Virus record (IMG/VR): IMGVR_UViG_3300025519_000001
Coordinates: 90,760 to 154,759 of that record
DNA length: 64,000 bases
From: a virus
Reading direction: 5' to 3' (one strand)
Shown here: positions 4,194 to 63,972 of the stretch, piece after piece
Layout: each line of letters starts with the position of its first letter
Position numbering within the stretch: position 1 is the first letter of the stretch
The notes under the pieces: model-generated
The model's database searches: none
Told to the model about the DNA's origin: nothing
The model's input: the letters and a program-made list of their open reading frames with translations, nothing else
Made by a program: the position numbers and the translations under genes

Positions 4194-5735
4194 TTAAACA
4201 GCATCAGCCTCTACTTTAATATCAAAAGTGCCACTACCAACTGCCGTATCACTAGTGCTTAATCTTACATAAAATTCAATTGTTTCATCAAAATTTAATT
4301 GTTGATCATATATCAAATAACTTTCCGCAACAAATGGATTATTAGATTTGCTCAATTCTATCGTTAATCCCTCAACATCTGTTTCTGTAGTTAGTCTAAT
4401 ATTTTTTACATTAAAAGGATATGTGTTTGTCAAAATAACCTTTACATCTAATGAGGTTTGACCAGAAATCATAGTATTAAAATCAAGATATTGAAGAATC
4501 TCTCCAAATGATGTTGAATAGTATTGTTGGGATGTATCCATGAACATTAGACCTGAATATTTCTTATCAAGCTCGCTATAATTAATTGTTATTGATGATA
4601 CAGTTGGTGTAATAGTAGTGATTTTAGAATTTGCAGATAATGAGTTTACTTCTAAAACTTCATTTGAATTGTTTTGCTCTAAATAATAAGCAAAGCGAAT
4701 GTTATTACTGTATAAACCAAGTTCTTCCCATTGAGATTGAGTTATTGCATTAAATTCTGCACTTGTCATCCCATTTTCTTTTATATCTAATAAATTAGTA
4801 ACATCTACAAAAATCCAATTATTACTTTTAAAAGATTTCCACGAGTTTCCATTATCATTACTAGTAATAATTTTAAAAATTGGCCCTGATTCTTCAATAT
4901 CTTCTAATTGGATGTTTTGTAATTCTCCATTAAAACTAACATCTTTAATCTGTTTAACAATCTGTGGCTTAGGTATGGCATTTATTGTAATTGCATTTAA
5001 ATCATTACTAGCCTCATTCCAAATCAAAATTTCAAAATTAGAAAGTTCTAAGACTGTATTAGAAGCATATGATAATTCATATTCGCTCAATCCATAATTC
5101 ACAAACAAATCTTTATTTAATGAATTGCTTGTGCTTATAATTTCCCAAGAAGCATTAGAAGAATTATAAGTTAAAATATTATTTTCTTTTTCAACTAGTA
5201 TAAGAGGATTGTTACCATATGGCAAAAAACCAACTGGAGGCGTATATGAAAAGCTTGTTTGTCCGAAATTAGCATAATATGTAATACTACCATTAGAGGT
5301 TCCACTCGTACAAACTGGATAAATTGTTCCTAATGTTTTAATATCTGTATGTGAAATACCTTGACTAACACCATTTTTCCAAAACTCTAAAGTTCCATTA
5401 TCCAAATCCACAAGAACACTTATTATGTCTCCATTTGTATAAGATGCTCCGTATGATTTTCCACCAGGAGATGTTGTTCCATTATAACCATAATATATCC
5501 TAACATTTGCATTTGAAGAAACTCCATTAGACATAGATACAGTTGAACTTGCTATTCCAATAAATTTGGCTGATGCACCACTTACATTTGTAACTTCCCA
5601 ATACCATTTTCCATAACTTTTACCAACTGTTGTTCTGATTCCCTGACTTATCGCATTAATAGTGACTGTATAATTGTCACTACTTAATGTAACGTTACTT
5701 CCTTTATTATTTGGGTCCCATGTGACAATCGCCAT
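4194..5735 (-). CDS. SPRY/B30.2-domain virion protein
   Basis: GKWYWEV, GDIISVLVDLDNGTLEFWKNGVSQG, ANFG...PPVGF motifs. Confidence 0.8.
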   Translation of the reverse strand: MAIVTWDPNNKGSNVTLSSDNYTVTINAISQGIRTTVGKSYGKWYWEVTNVSGASAKFIGIASSTVSMSNGVSSNANVRIYYGYNGTTSPGGKSYGASYTNGDIISVLVDLDNGTLEFWKNGVSQGISHTDIKTLGTIYPVCTSGTSNGSITYYANFGQTSFSYTPPVGFLPYGNNPLILVEKENNILTYNSSNASWEIISTSNSLNKDLFVNYGLSEYELSYASNTVLELSNFEILIWNEASNDLNAITINAIPKPQIVKQIKDVSFNGELQNIQLEDIEESGPIFKIITSNDNGNSWKSFKSNNWIFVDVTNLLDIKENGMTSAEFNAITQSQWEELGLYSNNIRFAYYLEQNNSNEVLEVNSLSANSKITTITPTVSSITINYSELDKKYSGLMFMDTSQQYYSTSFGEILQYLDFNTMISGQTSLDVKVILTNTYPFNVKNIRLTTETDVEGLTIELSKSNNPFVAESYLIYDQQLNFDETIEFYVRLSTSDTAVGSGTFDIKVEADAV

Positions 5736-7429: not shown

Positions 7430-7903
7430 TTATTGATACGTATAGAAAACACGTAACAAGAAATCAACAGTACCAGCAGTTGCCGTTACAGATGGCATTG
7501 CAAAAGCCGTAACTTGTGCAAAATTACTAGCTGAATTAGCTACTGTACCATCATTTGCAGTACCTTTTATAACTCCAGCAGGTGCAGTACCGCCAGCTTT
7601 AATAGGTCTTGCAGTATCTCCACCAATCGGGGAAAAAGTTTGCTCATTCATTGTGTCACATTTTACTTGAACCCACTTTTCAGTAATGATGTCGCCATTA
7701 TTACCGCCAGTAATGTCTTTTGTGGTGATCATACAACCTTCAGCGTCAGCAACATCCGTAGAGCCACCACGATTGTTCCAGATAAGGAATATTGCACTCT
7801 CAGAAGAAGTACCTGCGTCTACCGTTTTAAGATCCCATAACGTCCATTGTTCTGTGTTTCCTTGTTTCCACCAACTAATTACAGGACTAGCCATAATTAT
7901 CAT
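7430..7903 (-). CDS. Small beta-rich virion protein
   Basis: 157 aa, G/T/A-rich, in fibre module. Confidence 0.55.
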   Translation of the reverse strand: MIIMASPVISWWKQGNTEQWTLWDLKTVDAGTSSESAIFLIWNNRGGSTDVADAEGCMITTKDITGGNNGDIITEKWVQVKCDTMNEQTFSPIGGDTARPIKAGGTAPAGVIKGTANDGTVANSASNFAQVTAFAMPSVTATAGTVDFLLRVFYTYQ

Positions 7904-9084
7904 TCCTCCAAAGTATTAGAATTTGTTTTTATATCCAAATTAACTGTTATTCCCTTTATGTTTCCATCATATTGATAAACATTAATCCTAAAATAATCGC
8001 CTTTTGTTACATTTACATCTTCAACAACGCCACCTGTTGCAATTATATTATTTGGTTCAAAAGATAAATTTTCCGAAAAAATATTATCCCATGTGCCACT
8101 TAAAAATTCACTTTCCGATATTTTTTCAATACCAATTTGGGTACTAACCGAAATACCACTTTCCACACAATCAGCTTTAATATTTACGATTTCGCCGTCA
8201 AATGGAATTTGACTAAAACCAACAACATATTGAACACCTTGATCAATTATTTTGGGAATTTTAAATAAAACCCTTCTTAAAATAAAATTCTGATAATCTT
8301 CTTTGTGCAGAAGACCATCAGAATTTTCGGAGACATATGGAATTGCTTCTCCGATGATATTTCCAACCAATTGCCATTGATATGATACAACACCATCATA
8401 ACGATAAATATCGCCCGTTGTATTTATTAATACCTGCCATCCATTTTCGGGTTCAGGATAAACTGTTTCTAAATCATCATATGTGTCTACAGCAGGTTTT
8501 CTAATTACTACTGTTGTAGTTGCTGCATCGTAAGCAGCCTGCGCCGCTTGATTTGCATGATCTGCGGCCACATTAGCATTGTCAGTAGCAACATTGGCAT
8601 TATTGGTAGCATCTCTAGCATCGGAGATTGCTTTATTTATCTCGATTATTTTTTCGTTTATTGTTTTCGTGTAATTTACAAGTTGATCTACATAGTCCTG
8701 CAAAGTAACCAACACATCTGGATTATTTCTTGCAATGGCGTAGATTCTGCTGGCTGGATAAAGAATCAAGCCTCTCCCTAGATAAGAGCAGACTAATGTA
8801 TTACCTTCTTGTGAAGGGTGAAATTGAATAATCCCTACTGCATAGTTGACAACAAATTCATTTTCTTTGAGTGCCTTTGTCTTTTTGTAAACTTCCTCTG
8901 GAACTTCCACGAACCCTGTTATTTGAACTTTATGAGTATATGAGGGAACTTCTAAAAGAGTAATTTTATTGTTGATAACCGGAAGAGAATCGGAACGTGG
9001 AATATAAGGATCTTCTGGCGTTCCTTTTCGCCAAACAATAACGCTTGAATCGATGTGTTCAAGATATGTTTTTAACTCAGGCAT
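7900..9084 (-). CDS. Baseplate/fibre-attachment protein with coiled-coil
   Basis: NEFVVNY..GIIQF N-domain, Ala/Asn-rich heptads, YPEPENGW motif; follows tail tip genes. Confidence 0.6.
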   Translation of the reverse strand: MPELKTYLEHIDSSVIVWRKGTPEDPYIPRSDSLPVINNKITLLEVPSYTHKVQITGFVEVPEEVYKKTKALKENEFVVNYAVGIIQFHPSQEGNTLVCSYLGRGLILYPASRIYAIARNNPDVLVTLQDYVDQLVNYTKTINEKIIEINKAISDARDATNNANVATDNANVAADHANQAAQAAYDAATTTVVIRKPAVDTYDDLETVYPEPENGWQVLINTTGDIYRYDGVVSYQWQLVGNIIGEAIPYVSENSDGLLHKEDYQNFILRRVLFKIPKIIDQGVQYVVGFSQIPFDGEIVNIKADCVESGISVSTQIGIEKISESEFLSGTWDNIFSENLSFEPNNIIATGGVVEDVNVTKGDYFRINVYQYDGNIKGITVNLDIKTNSNTLEE

Positions 9085-57209: not shown

Positions 57210-58060
57210 ATTGATTGGTGATTTAATATTAAAATAGCGGCCATTTATGGTCGTTTTTTATTTTTGGTGGATGATTGATGGTTGTATTGGCGATGAGATT
57301 ATTAGTGTTTTTAATGATGGATGATGTAATCGTGGTGAATCGGATGGTGGATTTAGGGGTGTATAGGAACGAAATTTGGGAGTTTTGGATGGATGTGAAA
57401 TGTGAGATTTTTTGTTGAAAAATAAGTGGTTTTCGAGCGTTTTTGGATGGTTTTTGGAGAAAAATCATTAAAATTTGGTGTTTTTTAATCGCAAAAAATA
57501 TTGATTTTTAAGGGATTTTTGATGGTTGAATGGGGGTTGTTACGGAATTGGAAATTGCCTTGGTTGTTATTTTTGCATTTGTTTATGGTGTGTTTTCGAT
57601 TATGATTGCGATATATTTGTGGCTGTTTTTATGGATGATTTGGTATATGATGGTATTTTTGTTGAATCGCTCGTTTTGTGTATTGGGTGTGGTGATGGAT
57701 GTGCTGACGGTAGAAATTATGGAAAAAATGGAATAAAATGTGTAAACTATCCCCCCTACCTATGGTAGCATTTAGCACCCAAAAAGCTAGGAAAATCCGG
57801 CCATAATATGAGTTATAGACGGATTGCCGGATTGCGATAGTATCCAGGCGAGCGAAATAGTACTTTCATTCTTTATGGCGTTAAAGCATTAAAGTTTAGT
57901 ATATTAAAGTTCTAAAGTTAAAATGGCGACAAAATACTAGCGAAATAAAAATGGAAATAATCGCCATTGTAACAAGCCGCGTTTTGGTAGTGTCTTAGGT
58001 GTATTAAGTGAACTAATACACTAATACACTAGTGCACAAAAGCCAATCAAAAAAACATCA
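57210..58060. other. Non-coding strand-skewed region with CCCCCC switch point; possible packaging start or genome end
   Basis: G/T-rich to ~57745, CCCCCCTACC at 57751, then A-rich DNA with TAAAG and ACTAATAC mini-repeats. Confidence 0.4.
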
Positions 58061-58079: not shown

Positions 58080-58108
58080 TTGACATTATGCGATGCCGCG
58101 AGTATAAT
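58080..58108 (+). promoter_or_regulatory. Perfect consensus sigma-A early promoter with A-tract UP element
   Basis: TTGACA-17-TATAAT with upstream A tracts. Confidence 0.9.
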
Positions 58109-58114
58109 TAAAAA

Positions 58115-58560
58115 TGTAAGGAACAACGGACACCAGCGAACGCTAGATGCGAGCCGACCGCACACAATGGTGGGATGCTGCCAGCCAGTAGGCTCGATGA
58201 TGCTAAGTGGGAATGTCCGCATAAAAGCAAAATATCGCAACGGCAGGGCGGACGTGCCTAGATAGCTAGGCAATCCATCCGGGAGCGCCTAACAGCGCGA
58301 CAGTCATGCACTTTGATAATTACATATCGGCCCATCCGTTGATCGTCAACGTTAAAACGCTACGCGAAACAGCGCGGCAAGCACTAGGCAGGAAATGGGA
58401 AGCCTGTCTAGGCGACTGTCCCGGAGGAAGCGTCTCCTCTACTATCGCCCGCTATCGGACATAGATAGGGGAGGCGACGACCGACGCAAGGCAGGCAGGG
58501 TAGGAGTCCCGCACAAAACCCATAGCAACGATAAGAAGGTTATAACGCCCCACAATGCTT
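58115..58560 (+). ncRNA. Large structured leader RNA of the early operon
   Basis: GC-rich, no credible ORF, many nested helices; boxA-like GCACTTTGATAA at 58308. Confidence 0.6.
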
Positions 58561-58736
58561 TTTATGTTAGTTTTGCCTTTCCTCGCTTCGCAATCCTCGA
58601 TTCAAAAGCTGCACATAACGATATTTGCTCATGTAACACAATTGTTATAGTCTTCTTATCGCTGTTGCTAGCACTAGACAGTCTCAGCCTTTTGGCTGTC
58701 TTTTGTGTCCCCTGTTTAAAAAGGAGAATGTTACAT

Positions 58737-58970
58737 ATGGAAAAAAATGACATTGAAAAAATATGTGACAAAATGAACAGAGGCGAATTGAAAAATACAT
58801 TTGACGCGATGGTAAATCAAGCAGATTACCATGAATTGAGGCAAATGTTATTTGCAGCCAACGATTTGATGACGAGTGTCCAAAGAAGGATATATCTCAA
58901 AAAAATATGCCATAATAGGATTGCAGATTTTATAACGGCTGTTGAAGAAAATGGGATTTTAGAATTCTAA
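58737..58970 (+). CDS. Small early protein (77 aa)
   Basis: SD AAGGAG at 58721, MEKNDIEKICDKM...; real part of track ORF 58395-58970. Confidence 0.65.
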   Translation: MEKNDIEKICDKMNRGELKNTFDAMVNQADYHELRQMLFAANDLMTSVQRRIYLKKICHNRIADFITAVEENGILEF

Positions 58971-59062
58971 ACCAAAAACCAAAAACAGGGGACACAAAAG
59001 ACAGCCAAAGATATTTTTGGCTGTCTTTTGTGCTTCCCTGTAAAAAAATGGAGGAATAAAAA

Positions 59063-59248
59063 ATGCGTAGAACTTTTACGGAAGAAGTCGCCTACTATGA
59101 CGCAAAAAAAGTTATGCCAAATGTGTATGTTGGCACAAAAAACATCAAAACAGGCTACCGCATTATTACAGGTAGCGAATCAGGTTATACGTCCGTTATC
59201 GTATCTCATCAACAGGTTGATGCCATTAGAAAATTCTTGAATATATAA
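59063..59248 (+). CDS. Small early protein (61 aa)
   Basis: SD TGGAGG. Confidence 0.7.
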   Translation: MRRTFTEEVAYYDAKKVMPNVYVGTKNIKTGYRIITGSESGYTSVIVSHQQVDAIRKFLNI

Positions 59249-59339
59249 CACAAAAAACAAAAAACAGGGAAGCAGAAAAGACAGTCAAAAAACAATAACA
59301 AAACATCATCTTATAACGCTATAAGGAGAGTGACACACA

Positions 59340-59462: not shown

Positions 59463-59741
59463 ATGACAAAAAACCAAACGATCATCCTTTCGGAACTTGC
59501 TCGTCTTGGAATTAAATTCCAATACGACGGCCAAAACCTCCTCACGTTCCAAGAATGGAAAAAGCGCGGCTTTTACGTTCGGCGCGGCGAAAAGGCGTTT
59601 CTCCAAGTGCCTTTGTGGACGCCATGCGAAAAAACCGTTACAAAAGACGGAAAAGAAGAAAAGCAATTCTATTTTATTCTCAAAAAGGCTTCTCTCTTTG
59701 CGCCTTCTCAAGTTGAACGCCTTATAGTAAAAGGCGCATAA
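59463..59741 (+). CDS. ArdC-N-like ssDNA-binding domain protein
   Basis: TFQEWKKRGFYVRRGEKA...LW...F..SQV. Confidence 0.7.
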   Translation: MTKNQTIILSELARLGIKFQYDGQNLLTFQEWKKRGFYVRRGEKAFLQVPLWTPCEKTVTKDGKEEKQFYFILKKASLFAPSQVERLIVKGA

Positions 59742-59857
59742 CAGGAGGTAAAATATACTACAAGAGATAAAAAAATTTGAGTTGATCGACGGAACGAAAA
59801 AATATATAAGCCGTGATAAAATAATTGATATTATGATATGAAGGGAAGGAAATAAAT

Positions 59858-60079
59858 ATGCATAAGTACAATCCCACTACTAACGCAATTGTTATAGGCG
59901 ATTCGTTCCCGTTCCTCTTTTCACGTATCCGTTGCAAGCTGACGGATACAATTTACAAGGCAAAAAACGCCTACCGGTCGCCGGAAGGAGACGATATCTA
60001 TACATTCGTTTCTGATTGCGGAAAATCGTTTGACTCCGCGATCTATGTCGGATTTTTTGACAAGTACGAAAGCGTATAG
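59858..60079 (+). CDS. Small early protein
   Basis: SD AAGGA, 73 aa. Confidence 0.55.
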   Translation: MHKYNPTTNAIVIGDSFPFLFSRIRCKLTDTIYKAKNAYRSPEGDDIYTFVSDCGKSFDSAIYVGFFDKYESV

Positions 60080-60117
60080 ATCTAGGAGCTCGCTCGAGAG
60101 TGTCGGACAGCCACCAT

Positions 60118-60144
60118 AGAAGCCTAATAATAGGCTTCTTTTTT
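60118..60144 (+). terminator. Intrinsic terminator inside the early operon
   Basis: AGAAGCCTA-ataa-TAGGCTTCT-TTTTT. Confidence 0.7.
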
Positions 60145-61311: not shown

Positions 61312-61839
61312 ATGGAAATCAGAATCTATGTTGCTAACCTTGCCGCTTATAACGCCGGCTTTCTTGTCGGAGAGTGGATCGACCTTCCACTTTCTGACGA
61401 AGAACTGCGCGAAAAAATCCAGTCCATTCTCGACGCCTGGAACGATGGCTTTTCGCCGTCGGAAGAATATGCCATTCATGACTATGAAGCGCCTTTCTCC
61501 ATTGGCGAATATGACAGTCCGTATAAAATCAATGAATGGGCAGAAAGACTGTCAAACATCAGCGAAGATGAAGAAGTAATAAATGCCATTATTAACCATT
61601 TTTCGACTGTAGAAGAAGCGATAGAAACCATTGAAAACGGCGAATATCGAATTTATAATGATTGTGATGACATGGCGGACGTAGCATTCCAATTATGGGA
61701 GGAATCCGGCAGACTTGCAGAAGTCGAAAAAGTCATTTCTCCCAGTTATATCGACTGGGAAGCAATCGGAAGGGATATGGAAATTGAAGGAACGTTTATA
61801 AAAACAAATTATAATACGTTTGTTGAAATTATTGGATAG
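61312..61839 (+). CDS. ardA: ArdA antirestriction protein (type I R-M DNA mimic)
   Basis: IYVANLAAYNAG.LVGEWIDLP, EEYAIHDYE, YIDWEAIGRDM; very acidic. Confidence 0.93.
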   Translation: MEIRIYVANLAAYNAGFLVGEWIDLPLSDEELREKIQSILDAWNDGFSPSEEYAIHDYEAPFSIGEYDSPYKINEWAERLSNISEDEEVINAIINHFSTVEEAIETIENGEYRIYNDCDDMADVAFQLWEESGRLAEVEKVISPSYIDWEAIGRDMEIEGTFIKTNYNTFVEIIG

Positions 61840-62703: not shown

Positions 62704-63156
62704 ATGAAAAAATGGTATATCGATGATGTTTTTGTGCGCGAAGGCCGCATGTATGATCGCGGCTACTACATTGCGCAGAATGACGCGAAGGCATGGGTCG
62801 AGTGGCGAGAGCCTATTCCAAACGGCGAGACATACACATTTCCGCTCTCGGAATGCGCACATGAAGATGGTACGCCGATCCAAGTTGAGGACGGCGAACT
62901 AATTGGTACAATAGTCGAAGTCTCTGTGGATCGTCTCGAAATCCGCGAAGACTTTCCAAATCGGGACGAGGCATACGCTATTCTGACGGACGGCCAGCAC
63001 TTTGCCTTCGCGTGGGGGCCGAAATACCCCTACGCCGAAATAGTTCCGGCGCAGGATGTGAGGGACGGCGAGAGCGGGCTGGAGTGGTACGCCACCGAGC
63101 ATGAGGCTCGGGCGGCGATGAACGAGGCGACGGATGCCTGGAACACGCAGGGCTAG
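62704..63156 (+). CDS. Acidic early protein
   Basis: SD AAGGAGG, MKKWYIDDV...; higher GC than flanks. Confidence 0.7.
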   Translation: MKKWYIDDVFVREGRMYDRGYYIAQNDAKAWVEWREPIPNGETYTFPLSECAHEDGTPIQVEDGELIGTIVEVSVDRLEIREDFPNRDEAYAILTDGQHFAFAWGPKYPYAEIVPAQDVRDGESGLEWYATEHEARAAMNEATDAWNTQG

Positions 63157-63211
63157 GGACTGTCTCGCGCAAGCCGAGACCGCCGGGAAACCGGCGCTCC
63201 GCTCAACCTGC
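63147..63211 (+). ncRNA. Twister-sister-like self-cleaving ribozyme (three-way type), copy 1
   Basis: GCAGG-GCTAG-GGA-CT-GTCTCG CGCAAGC CGAGAC-CGCCGG GAAA CCGGCG-C-TCC-GCTCA-A-CCTGC; predicted cut C63204/A63205. Confidence 0.8.
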
Positions 63212-63271
63212 TATAACAGGCGGCGCGTAAGACCGCACCAAATGGGCGGCGGCGCGAAAGGAGAATGAAAT

Positions 63272-63874
63272 ATGACTTGGGATGCATGGGATTATTACAA
63301 TAATTGCCCCGTTTGTGGCGAGGCAAACTATACCAGTCATGGTTATTGCTCGGACGAGCACTACCTGACTTCGCTCAATAATGAGGAAAAATTTGCATAT
63401 CTATCCCAAAAAGCAGCCAAAGACGCTGCCGAAAGGGAGCGAGAAGCGAAGCAAGTACAGCGCATTATTTCATTCATTAACACCCATAAACCCGTATACC
63501 AAATGCCGGCAGATTCTGTCTGCTTTTGGTGGGAAGATCGCTATCGCCCTGATTTTACGGATTTTCTCGGGAGATGGCAACGTAACAAATGCTTTTGTTA
63601 CGGTCGCGTGGTTTACGGTGATAGAGGCATATGGGCGGAAAGTCTCCTTGAACTGGAGGAGGCTTTCCACCAAAAGAAAGTAAAAATTGTCTACGACATT
63701 AAAGATCATTTGGGTAATTTAGTGTCGTGGGAAGACTTCCTGTATTACGCGGTTACGGCCTGCGTCAATACGGAAGAGCAGTTCCTTGGCATCAAAAATT
63801 CCGCCAAAGAATTCATTCTTGGGCGGAATAGCAAAATCCAGAGGTATTCTTTTGCAGATGGGCTAGAACCCTGA
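63272..63874 (+). CDS. Early protein with N-terminal Zn finger
   Basis: CPVC...YCS..H; SD AAGGAG. Confidence 0.7.
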   Translation: MTWDAWDYYNNCPVCGEANYTSHGYCSDEHYLTSLNNEEKFAYLSQKAAKDAAEREREAKQVQRIISFINTHKPVYQMPADSVCFWWEDRYRPDFTDFLGRWQRNKCFCYGRVVYGDRGIWAESLLELEEAFHQKKVKIVYDIKDHLGNLVSWEDFLYYAVTACVNTEEQFLGIKNSAKEFILGRNSKIQRYSFADGLEP

Positions 63875-63939
63875 GCAGGGCTAGGCCCAGTCCCGTGAAA
63901 GCCGGGGCCGCCCCGAAAGGGGCGCGGCGCTCAACCTGC
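63875..63939 (+). ncRNA. Twister-sister-like self-cleaving ribozyme (three-way type), copy 2
   Basis: GCAGGGCTAGGCCCAGTCCCGTGAAAGCCGGGGCCGCCCCGAAAGGGGCGCGGCGCTCAACCTGC closely matches, from memory, the crystallised three-way twister-sister; predicted cut C63932/A63933. Confidence 0.88.
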
Positions 63940-63972
63940 TATAACAGCAGGAAAAATTTAGGAGGGATTCAC

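Follow-up and report, generated by a model that had tools for sequence, protein, structure and literature searches.

A conserved multi-helix leader RNA with a boxA-like motif heads an early anti-restriction operon in large phages and is a possible cis-acting antiterminator

The locus described here is the start of an operon of small early genes in a large phage, with some 620 nt of untranslated RNA at its head. The locus lies in a 64,000-nt stretch of viral DNA, hereafter the window, which is the last 64 kb of the 154,759-bp IMG/VR virus record IMGVR_UViG_3300025519_000001 (96% complete according to CheckV). An earlier note, made from the sequence alone, had proposed a structured leader RNA of about 450 nt with a boxA-like motif at positions 58115-58560, and had suggested either a processive antiterminator or a novel large non-coding RNA (ncRNA). 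We find that positions 58115-58521 on the + strand are a real, conserved, folded, non-coding leader RNA of an early anti-restriction operon, and that this RNA is a member of a small, uncatalogued RNA family that is a novel addition for databases. As to its function, we tentatively favor, at slightly less than even confidence, a leader that works in cis by equipping RNA polymerase with host Nus factors for read-through of the early operon. The RNA region is situated ~6 kb from the right end of the record, and since the same element is found mid-contig in a related 174-kb contig, the end of the record is arbitrary.

Two further versions of the RNA were identified. The first, in L003, was reached via a neighboring gene (ArdC-N-like, 59463-59738 in the window), and was recognized by a colinear match, though a weak one, and by an island of raised G+C in the equivalent relative place. 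The second was found by motif scans with nhmmer filtering in both viral contigs (L032) and metagenome contigs (L057), which are identical to each other here. These scans (three of viral contigs and one each of metagenome contigs and species genomes, all nhmmer-filtered) revealed no further homologue in the collections scanned, and a BLAST search of the RNA against phage and plasmid records had no match. The family consists, then, of three distinct sequences (window, L003 and L032/L057), all from large-phage lineages. Common to all three is a syntenic arrangement comprising a RecD-like helicase, one or more winged helix-turn-helix (wHTH) Rep-like genes, a C-poor, strand-skewed desert, the promoter, the RNA and small early genes. 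The desert upstream of the promoter is strongly G-skewed (window 57210-57770; L003:800-2300, with a GC skew of up to 0.78) and is also present in L057. Thirteen more distant viral loci with a Rep-like gene had neither the RNA nor a G+C island, and the RNA is confined to a narrow group of phages. The contig of the closest relative (L002/L153) stops short of the RNA position.

The Rfam scan that the earlier note had called for was conducted with Rfam 15 and produced no match to the RNA of the window, L003 or L057, either at gathering score or at E <= 10, and there was no similarity to any Rfam riboswitch in the leader RNA. A possible relation to RNase P, suggested by a resemblance of L003 GGGGAAAGTCCATGC to the P4 strand of the type-B RNA, was discarded as the motif is missing from the other two RNAs; the RNaseP_bact_b model found nothing in the phage genome at E <= 10.

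Transcription of the RNA is expected from a promoter, TTGACA-17-TATAAT, at 58080-58108 on the + strand, which matches the sigma-70 consensus at 12 of 12 positions and is the sole such match within 9 kb, placing the probable start at ~58115. Promoters are present at the equivalent place in L003 (TTGCGT-17-TATTAT) and L057 (TTGCAT-17-TATATT). The G+C content rises to 50-57% over 58100-58550, compared to 30-35% on either side, and is 56% for the RNA itself (58115-58521), in which the GC skew is near zero. The earliest gene to have a ribosome-binding site begins at 58737, and the untranslated leader is ~620 nt in length. The region is not translated to judge by its six reading frames, every one of which has three to nine stops, in the window RNA as in both others. 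In addition, the spacings between conserved anchors differ among the homologues by non-multiples of three, and the small open reading frames (ORFs) of the window lack conservation, the homologues having no start codon for them. One of these, ORF 58395-58970, is the first gene with an arginine-rich, low-complexity N-terminal extension, and the stops in every frame together with this low-complexity extension led us to reject a protein-coding reading.

The three RNAs share a core of ~280 nt (58241-58521), as determined from their alignment and from minimum free energy (MFE) folds, which is closed by helix P1 (GGG 58281-58283 with CCC 58519-58521). It is preceded by a variable 5' domain (58115-58240) that the alignments show to be specific to the window: this domain is missing in L003, and L057 has an unrelated domain of ~150 nt in its stead. 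Within the core region, P2 (58246-58252/58274-58280) encloses P3 (58257-58261/58266-58270), whose AUAG loop (58262-58265) is invariant. The P2/P3 strands read GGGCGGA/UCCAUCC, GGAUGAUC/GAUCAUCC and GGAUGC/GCAUCC in the three sequences, and P3 has two covarying pairs. There follow the P4 hairpin (58285-58298), in a boxB-like position 8 nt upstream of the boxA-type motif, the P5 hairpin (58337-58351), the P6 hairpin (58363-58376; CGCG-AAACAG-CGCG, with CACG/CGUG in L057 and CGUG/CGCG in L003) and the 9-bp P7 hairpin with its G-rich loop (58384-58411), in which six of nine pairs are changed on both sides and 100% of the alignment cells are paired. The 3' domain (58416-58494) is closed by the long-range helix P8 (58416-58420/58490-58494) and holds a long hairpin that is specific to the window (58430-58478), with P10 (58447-58451/58456-58460) and its invariant CUAU loop (58452-58455) at the tip. 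The last hairpin, P11 (58495-58512), has an invariant 7-nt loop, UAGGAGU, and is followed by a conserved tail, ACAA..CCC. The invariant blocks of the alignment (GGCAGG, AGATAGCT, CATCCGGG, TTGAnAA, ATAT, GGCAGCAC, AGGCGAC, GCTATC, GGTAGGAGTCC and GCACAA) are separated by variable stretches. The AUAG and CUAU loops of P3 and P10 are complementary and are candidates for a kissing-loop interaction, and the GGG(G) of the P7 loop could alternatively pair with the CCC tail.

In support of this fold, the same helices, built from different letters, occur at homologous places in all three RNAs (P2, P3, P4-P7, P8, P10 and P11). Covariation was counted over the 36 pairs of P3, P6, P7, P8, P10 and P11 in a three-sequence alignment (A2). 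Standard pairs made up 95.2% of the cells, and 14 of the 36 pairs had compensatory double changes, including a G-C/C-G swap in P11 (58498:58510). None of 500 shuffles reached any of the five pairing measures, and in a control in which the 3' partners were slid by 1-3 columns pairing fell to 28-43%, with at most three covarying pairs. Six G-U wobble cells fit the + strand only, in agreement with the direction of the promoter. Unconstrained MFE folding of L003 and L057 reproduced the comparative helices and added the closing helix P1, in which the GGG(G) right behind CAUCC pairs with the CCC(C) tail. Further support comes from a variant contig of a wood-decay run, which differs from the window in the P9/P10 hairpin only in a structure-preserving manner: the changes at 58434, 58439 and 58441 (C>U or A>G) turn C-G or A-U pairs into wobble pairs, that at 58448 turns a C-A mismatch into a U-A pair, and those at 58428, 58446 and 58477 are at unpaired sites. 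The single-sequence fold of the window is weak evidence (z = -1.9; 1 of 20 shuffles folds as well). An A/U-rich long-range helix proposed by RNAalifold (A2 columns 136-146/398-408) was rejected, as the sequence on its 3' side makes up, in L003 and L057, the 5' arm of the stalk described below that encloses genes.

Viewed against this alignment, the six helices that had been listed from the window sequence are all readable there, and half of them belong to the conserved structure or extend it. TGCCTAG/CTAGGCA (P3) and CTAGGCAGG/CCTGTCTAG (P7) are kept with compensatory changes in both homologous RNAs, and CGTCTCCTCT/GGGGAGGCG is a window-specific extension of the conserved P10 hairpin tip, the structure of which the variant contig preserves. 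The other three are confined to the window: CGAGCC/GGCTCG sits in the non-conserved 5' domain, while GTCCGC/GCGGAC and the long-range TCCGG+GACAGTC/GACTGTCCCGGA have no counterpart in the homologues and compete with the conserved P2 and P8, respectively. The broader proposal of a novel, large structured leader RNA was borne out by the covariation in three lineages, the absence of coding capacity and the Rfam result.

The boxA-type motif of the window is TGCACTTTGATAA (= TGCACTTTGATAAT), at 58307-58319 on the + strand, ~192 nt after the probable start and before terminator-like sites at 58685 and 60118. As references, we used the boxA sequences of Bacillota rrn operons fetched from plasmid records of Paenibacillus polymyxa and Bacillus badius. 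The boxA of the 16S leader is TGATCTTTGAAAAC in both species, and that of the P. polymyxa 16S-23S spacer is TGCACCTTGAAAAC (TGCACCTTGAAAA). The L057 motif, TGATCTTTGAAAA (TGATCTTTGAAAAT), is identical to the P. polymyxa/B. badius leader type at 13 of 13 positions and was the top match in a short-word BLAST against both leaders. An exact 13-mer of this composition in a 510-nt RNA has a chance of ~4e-5, as estimated from base composition. The window motif matches the P. polymyxa spacer type at 11 of 13 positions, a comparison in which the identity of the host is only inferred, and the L003 motif, CGCACATTGACAAC, matches that type at 10 of 13. The resemblance that the earlier note had seen in the window holds up, in that the position of the motif is conserved across all three RNAs. 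The window match alone is weak (~1-in-100 for that spot, with 3-mismatch matches to the leader type occurring in the window at chance frequency), and the case for boxA therefore rests on positional homology across the family. A hairpin is found at the place of P4 in all three RNAs, 7-21 nt upstream of boxA, with sequences that cannot be aligned with each other or with anything known; no boxC was recognized in the leader RNA. Beyond boxA, the phage RNAs had no similarity to rrn leaders. A weaker second boxA-like string is present in L057 (L057:3823-3835, GACATTGAAAAC), within a hairpin loop of the 5' domain that is peculiar to L057, and a second boxA-like match in L003 (8052) was set aside, being inside coding sequence. 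The P. polymyxa "plasmid" records themselves (L167:464-477 and L173:326-339) contain complete rRNA operons, in which the leader TGATCTTTGAAAAC and spacer TGCACCTTGAAAAC differ at three positions.

Downstream of the leader, the operon includes the ArdC-N domain gene (59463-59738) and ardA (61312-61836). Between them is the terminator that had been proposed at 60118, which is indeed present as an intrinsic-terminator-like hairpin with a 9-bp stem and a T6 run (60118-60139, + strand), inside the operon and upstream of ardA. Since ardA is beyond this terminator, and there is no promoter-like site of 9/12 or better between 60140 and ~61500, read-through would be needed for its expression. In L003, too, terminator-like sites are found inside the operon, at 4867 and 5272.

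Directly behind the core is a long imperfect hairpin (58526-58664, with arms 58526-58546 and 58644-58664), a candidate double-stranded RNA (dsRNA) processing site. Next is a perfect, 27-bp long-range stalk (58691-58717/58983-59009), within which the first gene lies (58737-58970). The 5' arm of this stalk can also fold into a small hairpin that resembles a terminator (58685-58698). In the window, genes 1 and 2 are enclosed by stalks of 27 and 28 bp, respectively, and in L003 and L057 a 25-27-bp stalk begins 3 nt after the core, with arms that flank the first gene or genes. The stalks of L003 and L057 differ by compensatory changes, from which it follows that the duplex itself is under selection. 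Such near-perfect stalks of 25-28 bp span 58691-59291 in the window, L003:3056-3435 and L057:4218-4453, and a further pairing is possible in the window, between the 3' arm of stalk 1 and the 5' arm of stalk 2 (58993-59012/59013-59032).

A processive antiterminator is a plausible fit to this layout, and our favored, tentative reading is of that kind. Host sigma-A RNA polymerase would start at the consensus promoter, and the nascent RNA would fold into the multi-helix core P1-P11 and present the rrn-type boxA in its central junction. NusB-S10 of the host may then bind boxA and nucleate a Nus-modified elongation complex, as on rRNA operons and the T7 early leader, and this complex would carry transcription along the untranslated leader without Rho-type termination and past the terminator-like hairpins at 58685 and 60118 to ardC-N, ardA and the other small early genes. 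If held at the polymerase, the leader may also aid formation of the gene-enclosing stalks, and the long dsRNA elements just behind the core would allow its removal, presumably by RNase III. Nus binding, antitermination, cleavage and a role for the conserved domains outside boxA are the inferred parts of this reading.

The nearest precedents are the T7 early region and the leaders of rRNA operons. T7 has a genetically defined boxA antitermination element in the untranslated leader behind its early host promoters, as summarized in PMC3709561 (citing Savalia 2010). The precedent rests on that summary, as the T7 RefSeq record has no annotated boxA feature. On this account, T7 shares with the phages described here strong host-type promoters (A1-A3 in T7), a boxA in the leader and dsRNA/RNase III sites (R0.3), and in both an anti-restriction gene is among the first products (gene 0.3 ocr in T7). 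However, the T7 leader is short and is not known as a conserved multi-helix RNA, whereas the boxA of the window is within a covarying core. The window also differs from T7 in its presumed Bacillota host, in the enclosure of genes in 25-28-bp long-range stalks and in having self-cleaving ribozymes.

In rRNA operons, whose leaders have a nut-like boxB-boxA-boxC site, the complexes nucleated at boxA resist termination and hold the leader at the polymerase, and they may assist formation of the leader-trailer RNase III stalk by delivering its 5' strand (PMC8632103). The phage leaders resemble those of rRNA operons in having a boxA that is identical (L057) or near-identical (window) to that of Paenibacillus/Bacillus rrn, a hairpin just upstream of it, a possible counterpart of boxB, and a long-range stalk that begins shortly after and encloses the cargo. 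Unlike rRNA operons, the phages have small protein-coding genes as cargo and one boxA per operon, and no rrn counterpart was found for their P2/P3 and P6-P11 domains.

Other antiterminator RNAs provide a second set of comparisons. The conAn2 RNA of the bipartite ConAn1/conAn2 processive antitermination system of pLS20-type conjugative plasmids is 260-600 nt in length and allows polymerase to read through intrinsic terminators (PMC8191782). By its description, conAn2 is a functional analogue, as it is a large RNA with poor sequence conservation that heads a long operon of a Gram-positive mobile element, but no boxA has been described for it. It also follows and needs the conAn1 gene, whereas there is no ORF between the promoter and the RNA in the window (ConAn1 homologues elsewhere were not searched for). 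The put and EAR RNAs are much smaller RNA-only processive antiterminators (PMC8191782). HK022 put and EAR, like the role proposed here, modify the elongating polymerase via a cis-acting nascent RNA, but they act without a boxA, which the window RNA carries. EAR is presumably represented in Rfam, and no Rfam family matched the leader RNA. The same holds for ROOL and GOLLD, both of which we take to be in Rfam. These are likewise large structured RNAs of Bacillota phages and prophages, but they are free-standing genes, often near tRNAs, whereas the window RNA is an operon leader and there are no tRNA or tmRNA genes in the window. As to protein partners, a search of the 154,759-bp record with PF02357 gave no NusG paralog of the LoaP kind at E <= 1 (control genomes matched), and the small downstream proteins had no informative Pfam or PHROG match, with proteins like lambda N, which are too short and diverse for profiles, not searched for.

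A number of points weigh against a Nus-loading leader. A 13-nt boxA needs no 280-nt core, and most of the conserved structure is left unexplained. The boxA of the window differs from both rrn types at two to three positions, sites with one or no mismatch to the combined boxA consensus number 7 in the 64 kb compared to 3.1 expected, and the folds predicted for the RNAs do not clearly leave the motif single-stranded (P(unpaired) 0.40-0.58). There is no + strand terminator-like site in the first 3 kb of L057, and if the RNA is cut off at the first stalk a single boxA would have to serve the whole operon. In E. coli, boxA/Nus complexes mainly counter Rho and not strong intrinsic terminators, and to our knowledge boxA function has been little tested in Bacillota. 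That the host belongs to the Bacillota is itself a guess, based on Paenibacillus and compost as the sources of homologues of the Rep-like protein; the window sequence occurs in sequencing runs of bioreactor and wood-decay metagenomes, with no RNA run among those listed. Finally, the covariation statistics are thin, with only three distinct sequences, and the structure was derived from those same sequences.

A bolder form of the Nus-loading reading, which we consider doubtful, has the RNA do more than boxA alone. Under this form the RNA would be a new class of phage scaffold mimicking the rRNA operon, which gathers NusB/S10 and partners, the host complex for rrn-type antitermination and RNA chaperoning, on the polymerase, with a conserved tertiary fold (the P3-P10 kissing loops and the UAGGAGU loop) that binds further host factors. 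Early transcription would be fast and termination-proof and the stalks would be chaperoned, and after excision the RNA might persist as a ribonucleoprotein that titrates factors from host rRNA synthesis.

In a different reading, which we regard as rather unlikely, the conserved core is excised at the flanking dsRNA elements and acts alone in trans, for instance as a decoy or sponge for a host defense or RNA-binding factor, or as a titrating scaffold for Nus factors or ribosomal proteins, with boxA serving only to ensure its synthesis. A core with nine or more conserved helices, complementary invariant tetraloops suggestive of a compact tertiary fold, an invariant UAGGAGU hairpin loop, long dsRNA elements directly behind the core in all three phages and its position as the first product of an anti-defense operon are all consistent with such an ncRNA. 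However, the RNA is bounded by neither a terminator nor a ribozyme and continues straight into the mRNA, no target or partner was identified, and the family is very small.

Another unlikely role is that of a 5' stabilizer and processing platform, guarding the mRNA against 5'-end-dependent decay (RNase J1/Y) and setting up its ordered processing by RNase III and ribozymes, with elongation unaffected. STAB-SD elements of Bacillota and the RNase III site of SP82 early RNA are precedents. The RNA is the 5'-most part of an operon that abounds in processing devices, both stalks and ribozymes (twister-sister or pistol), and the invariant P11 loop contains AGGAG, which resembles a Shine-Dalgarno sequence. 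Against this, the loop is upstream of the first stalk and would be separated from the mRNAs meant to be protected, simple 5' hairpins suffice for stabilization, and the rrn-identical boxA is left unexplained.

We think it very unlikely that the leader is a regulatory sensor, akin to a riboswitch or thermosensor, that gates the early operon via alternative folding. The window does have competing pairings (GTCCGC/GCGGAC with P2 and GACAGTC/GACTGTC with P8) and the small terminator-like hairpin at 58685 overlaps a stalk arm, but neither L003 nor L057 shares the alternative pairings or has a conserved terminator/anti-terminator pair behind the core, and the lack of similarity to Rfam riboswitches also counts against a sensor. 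More improbable still is a replication-linked transcript, a primer or R-loop RNA for the adjacent plasmid-like replication module on the model of ColE1 RNA II or the T4/T7 origin transcripts. In its favor, the RecD-like helicase, the wHTH Rep-like gene (PF13730) and the strongly strand-skewed, AT-rich desert just upstream are conserved in their synteny with the RNA. Against it, the RNA is directed toward the early genes and away from that module, has almost no GC skew and is missing from more distant relatives with the same Rep-like gene. A chance structure or a hidden small protein gene, to which the modest single-sequence z score and the existence of ORFs 58306-58464 and 58395-58970 might point, has a negligible likelihood given covariation across three lineages, reading frames that are interrupted and not conserved, and an N-terminal extension that is arginine-rich and of low complexity.

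Elsewhere in these operons, ribozymes occur at gene boundaries. The only Rfam matches within the window are two twister-sister ribozymes, at 63145-63215 and 63873-63943, while the related early operons have pistol ribozymes instead (L003:5659-5730 and 7901-7973; L057:6949-7022). Strain variants in bioreactor metagenome runs (X2-X4) lack 247 nt from the interval that separates the two arms of stalk 1, with loss of gene 1 (window 58726-58974), and have 384 nt around the gene at 59858-60079 replaced by 44 other letters (window 59741-60126). A loose contig end at 60075 reads GCAGGGCTAGGG, which is the twister-sister core motif. Gene cassettes therefore seem to be swapped at the boundaries formed by RNA devices. 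L003 has a second G+C-rich island (53-55%; L003:3947-4440), which is a 141-aa ORF without a Pfam match, and behind that ORF is a G+C-rich, hairpin-rich stretch (L003:4372-4440) with no Rfam match. In the closest relative, the RecD-like helicase gene (L002:8001-11237) has 751 residues matched over 3237 bases, and the surplus of ~1 kb suggests an insertion such as an intein, intron or homing element.

In E. coli, lambda and T7 are established examples of phages that use boxA. We know of almost nothing on Nus/boxA antitermination in Bacillota, or on its use by the phages that infect them. The family described here has an rrn-identical boxA inside a conserved, uncatalogued multi-helix RNA that heads an anti-restriction operon with stalks and ribozymes. 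If the Nus-loading reading is true, these phages would provide a compact natural system for the borrowing of the host rRNA transcription machinery by phages in Gram-positives, and also one for determining what the extra RNA domains add and how transcription, folding and processing are coupled.

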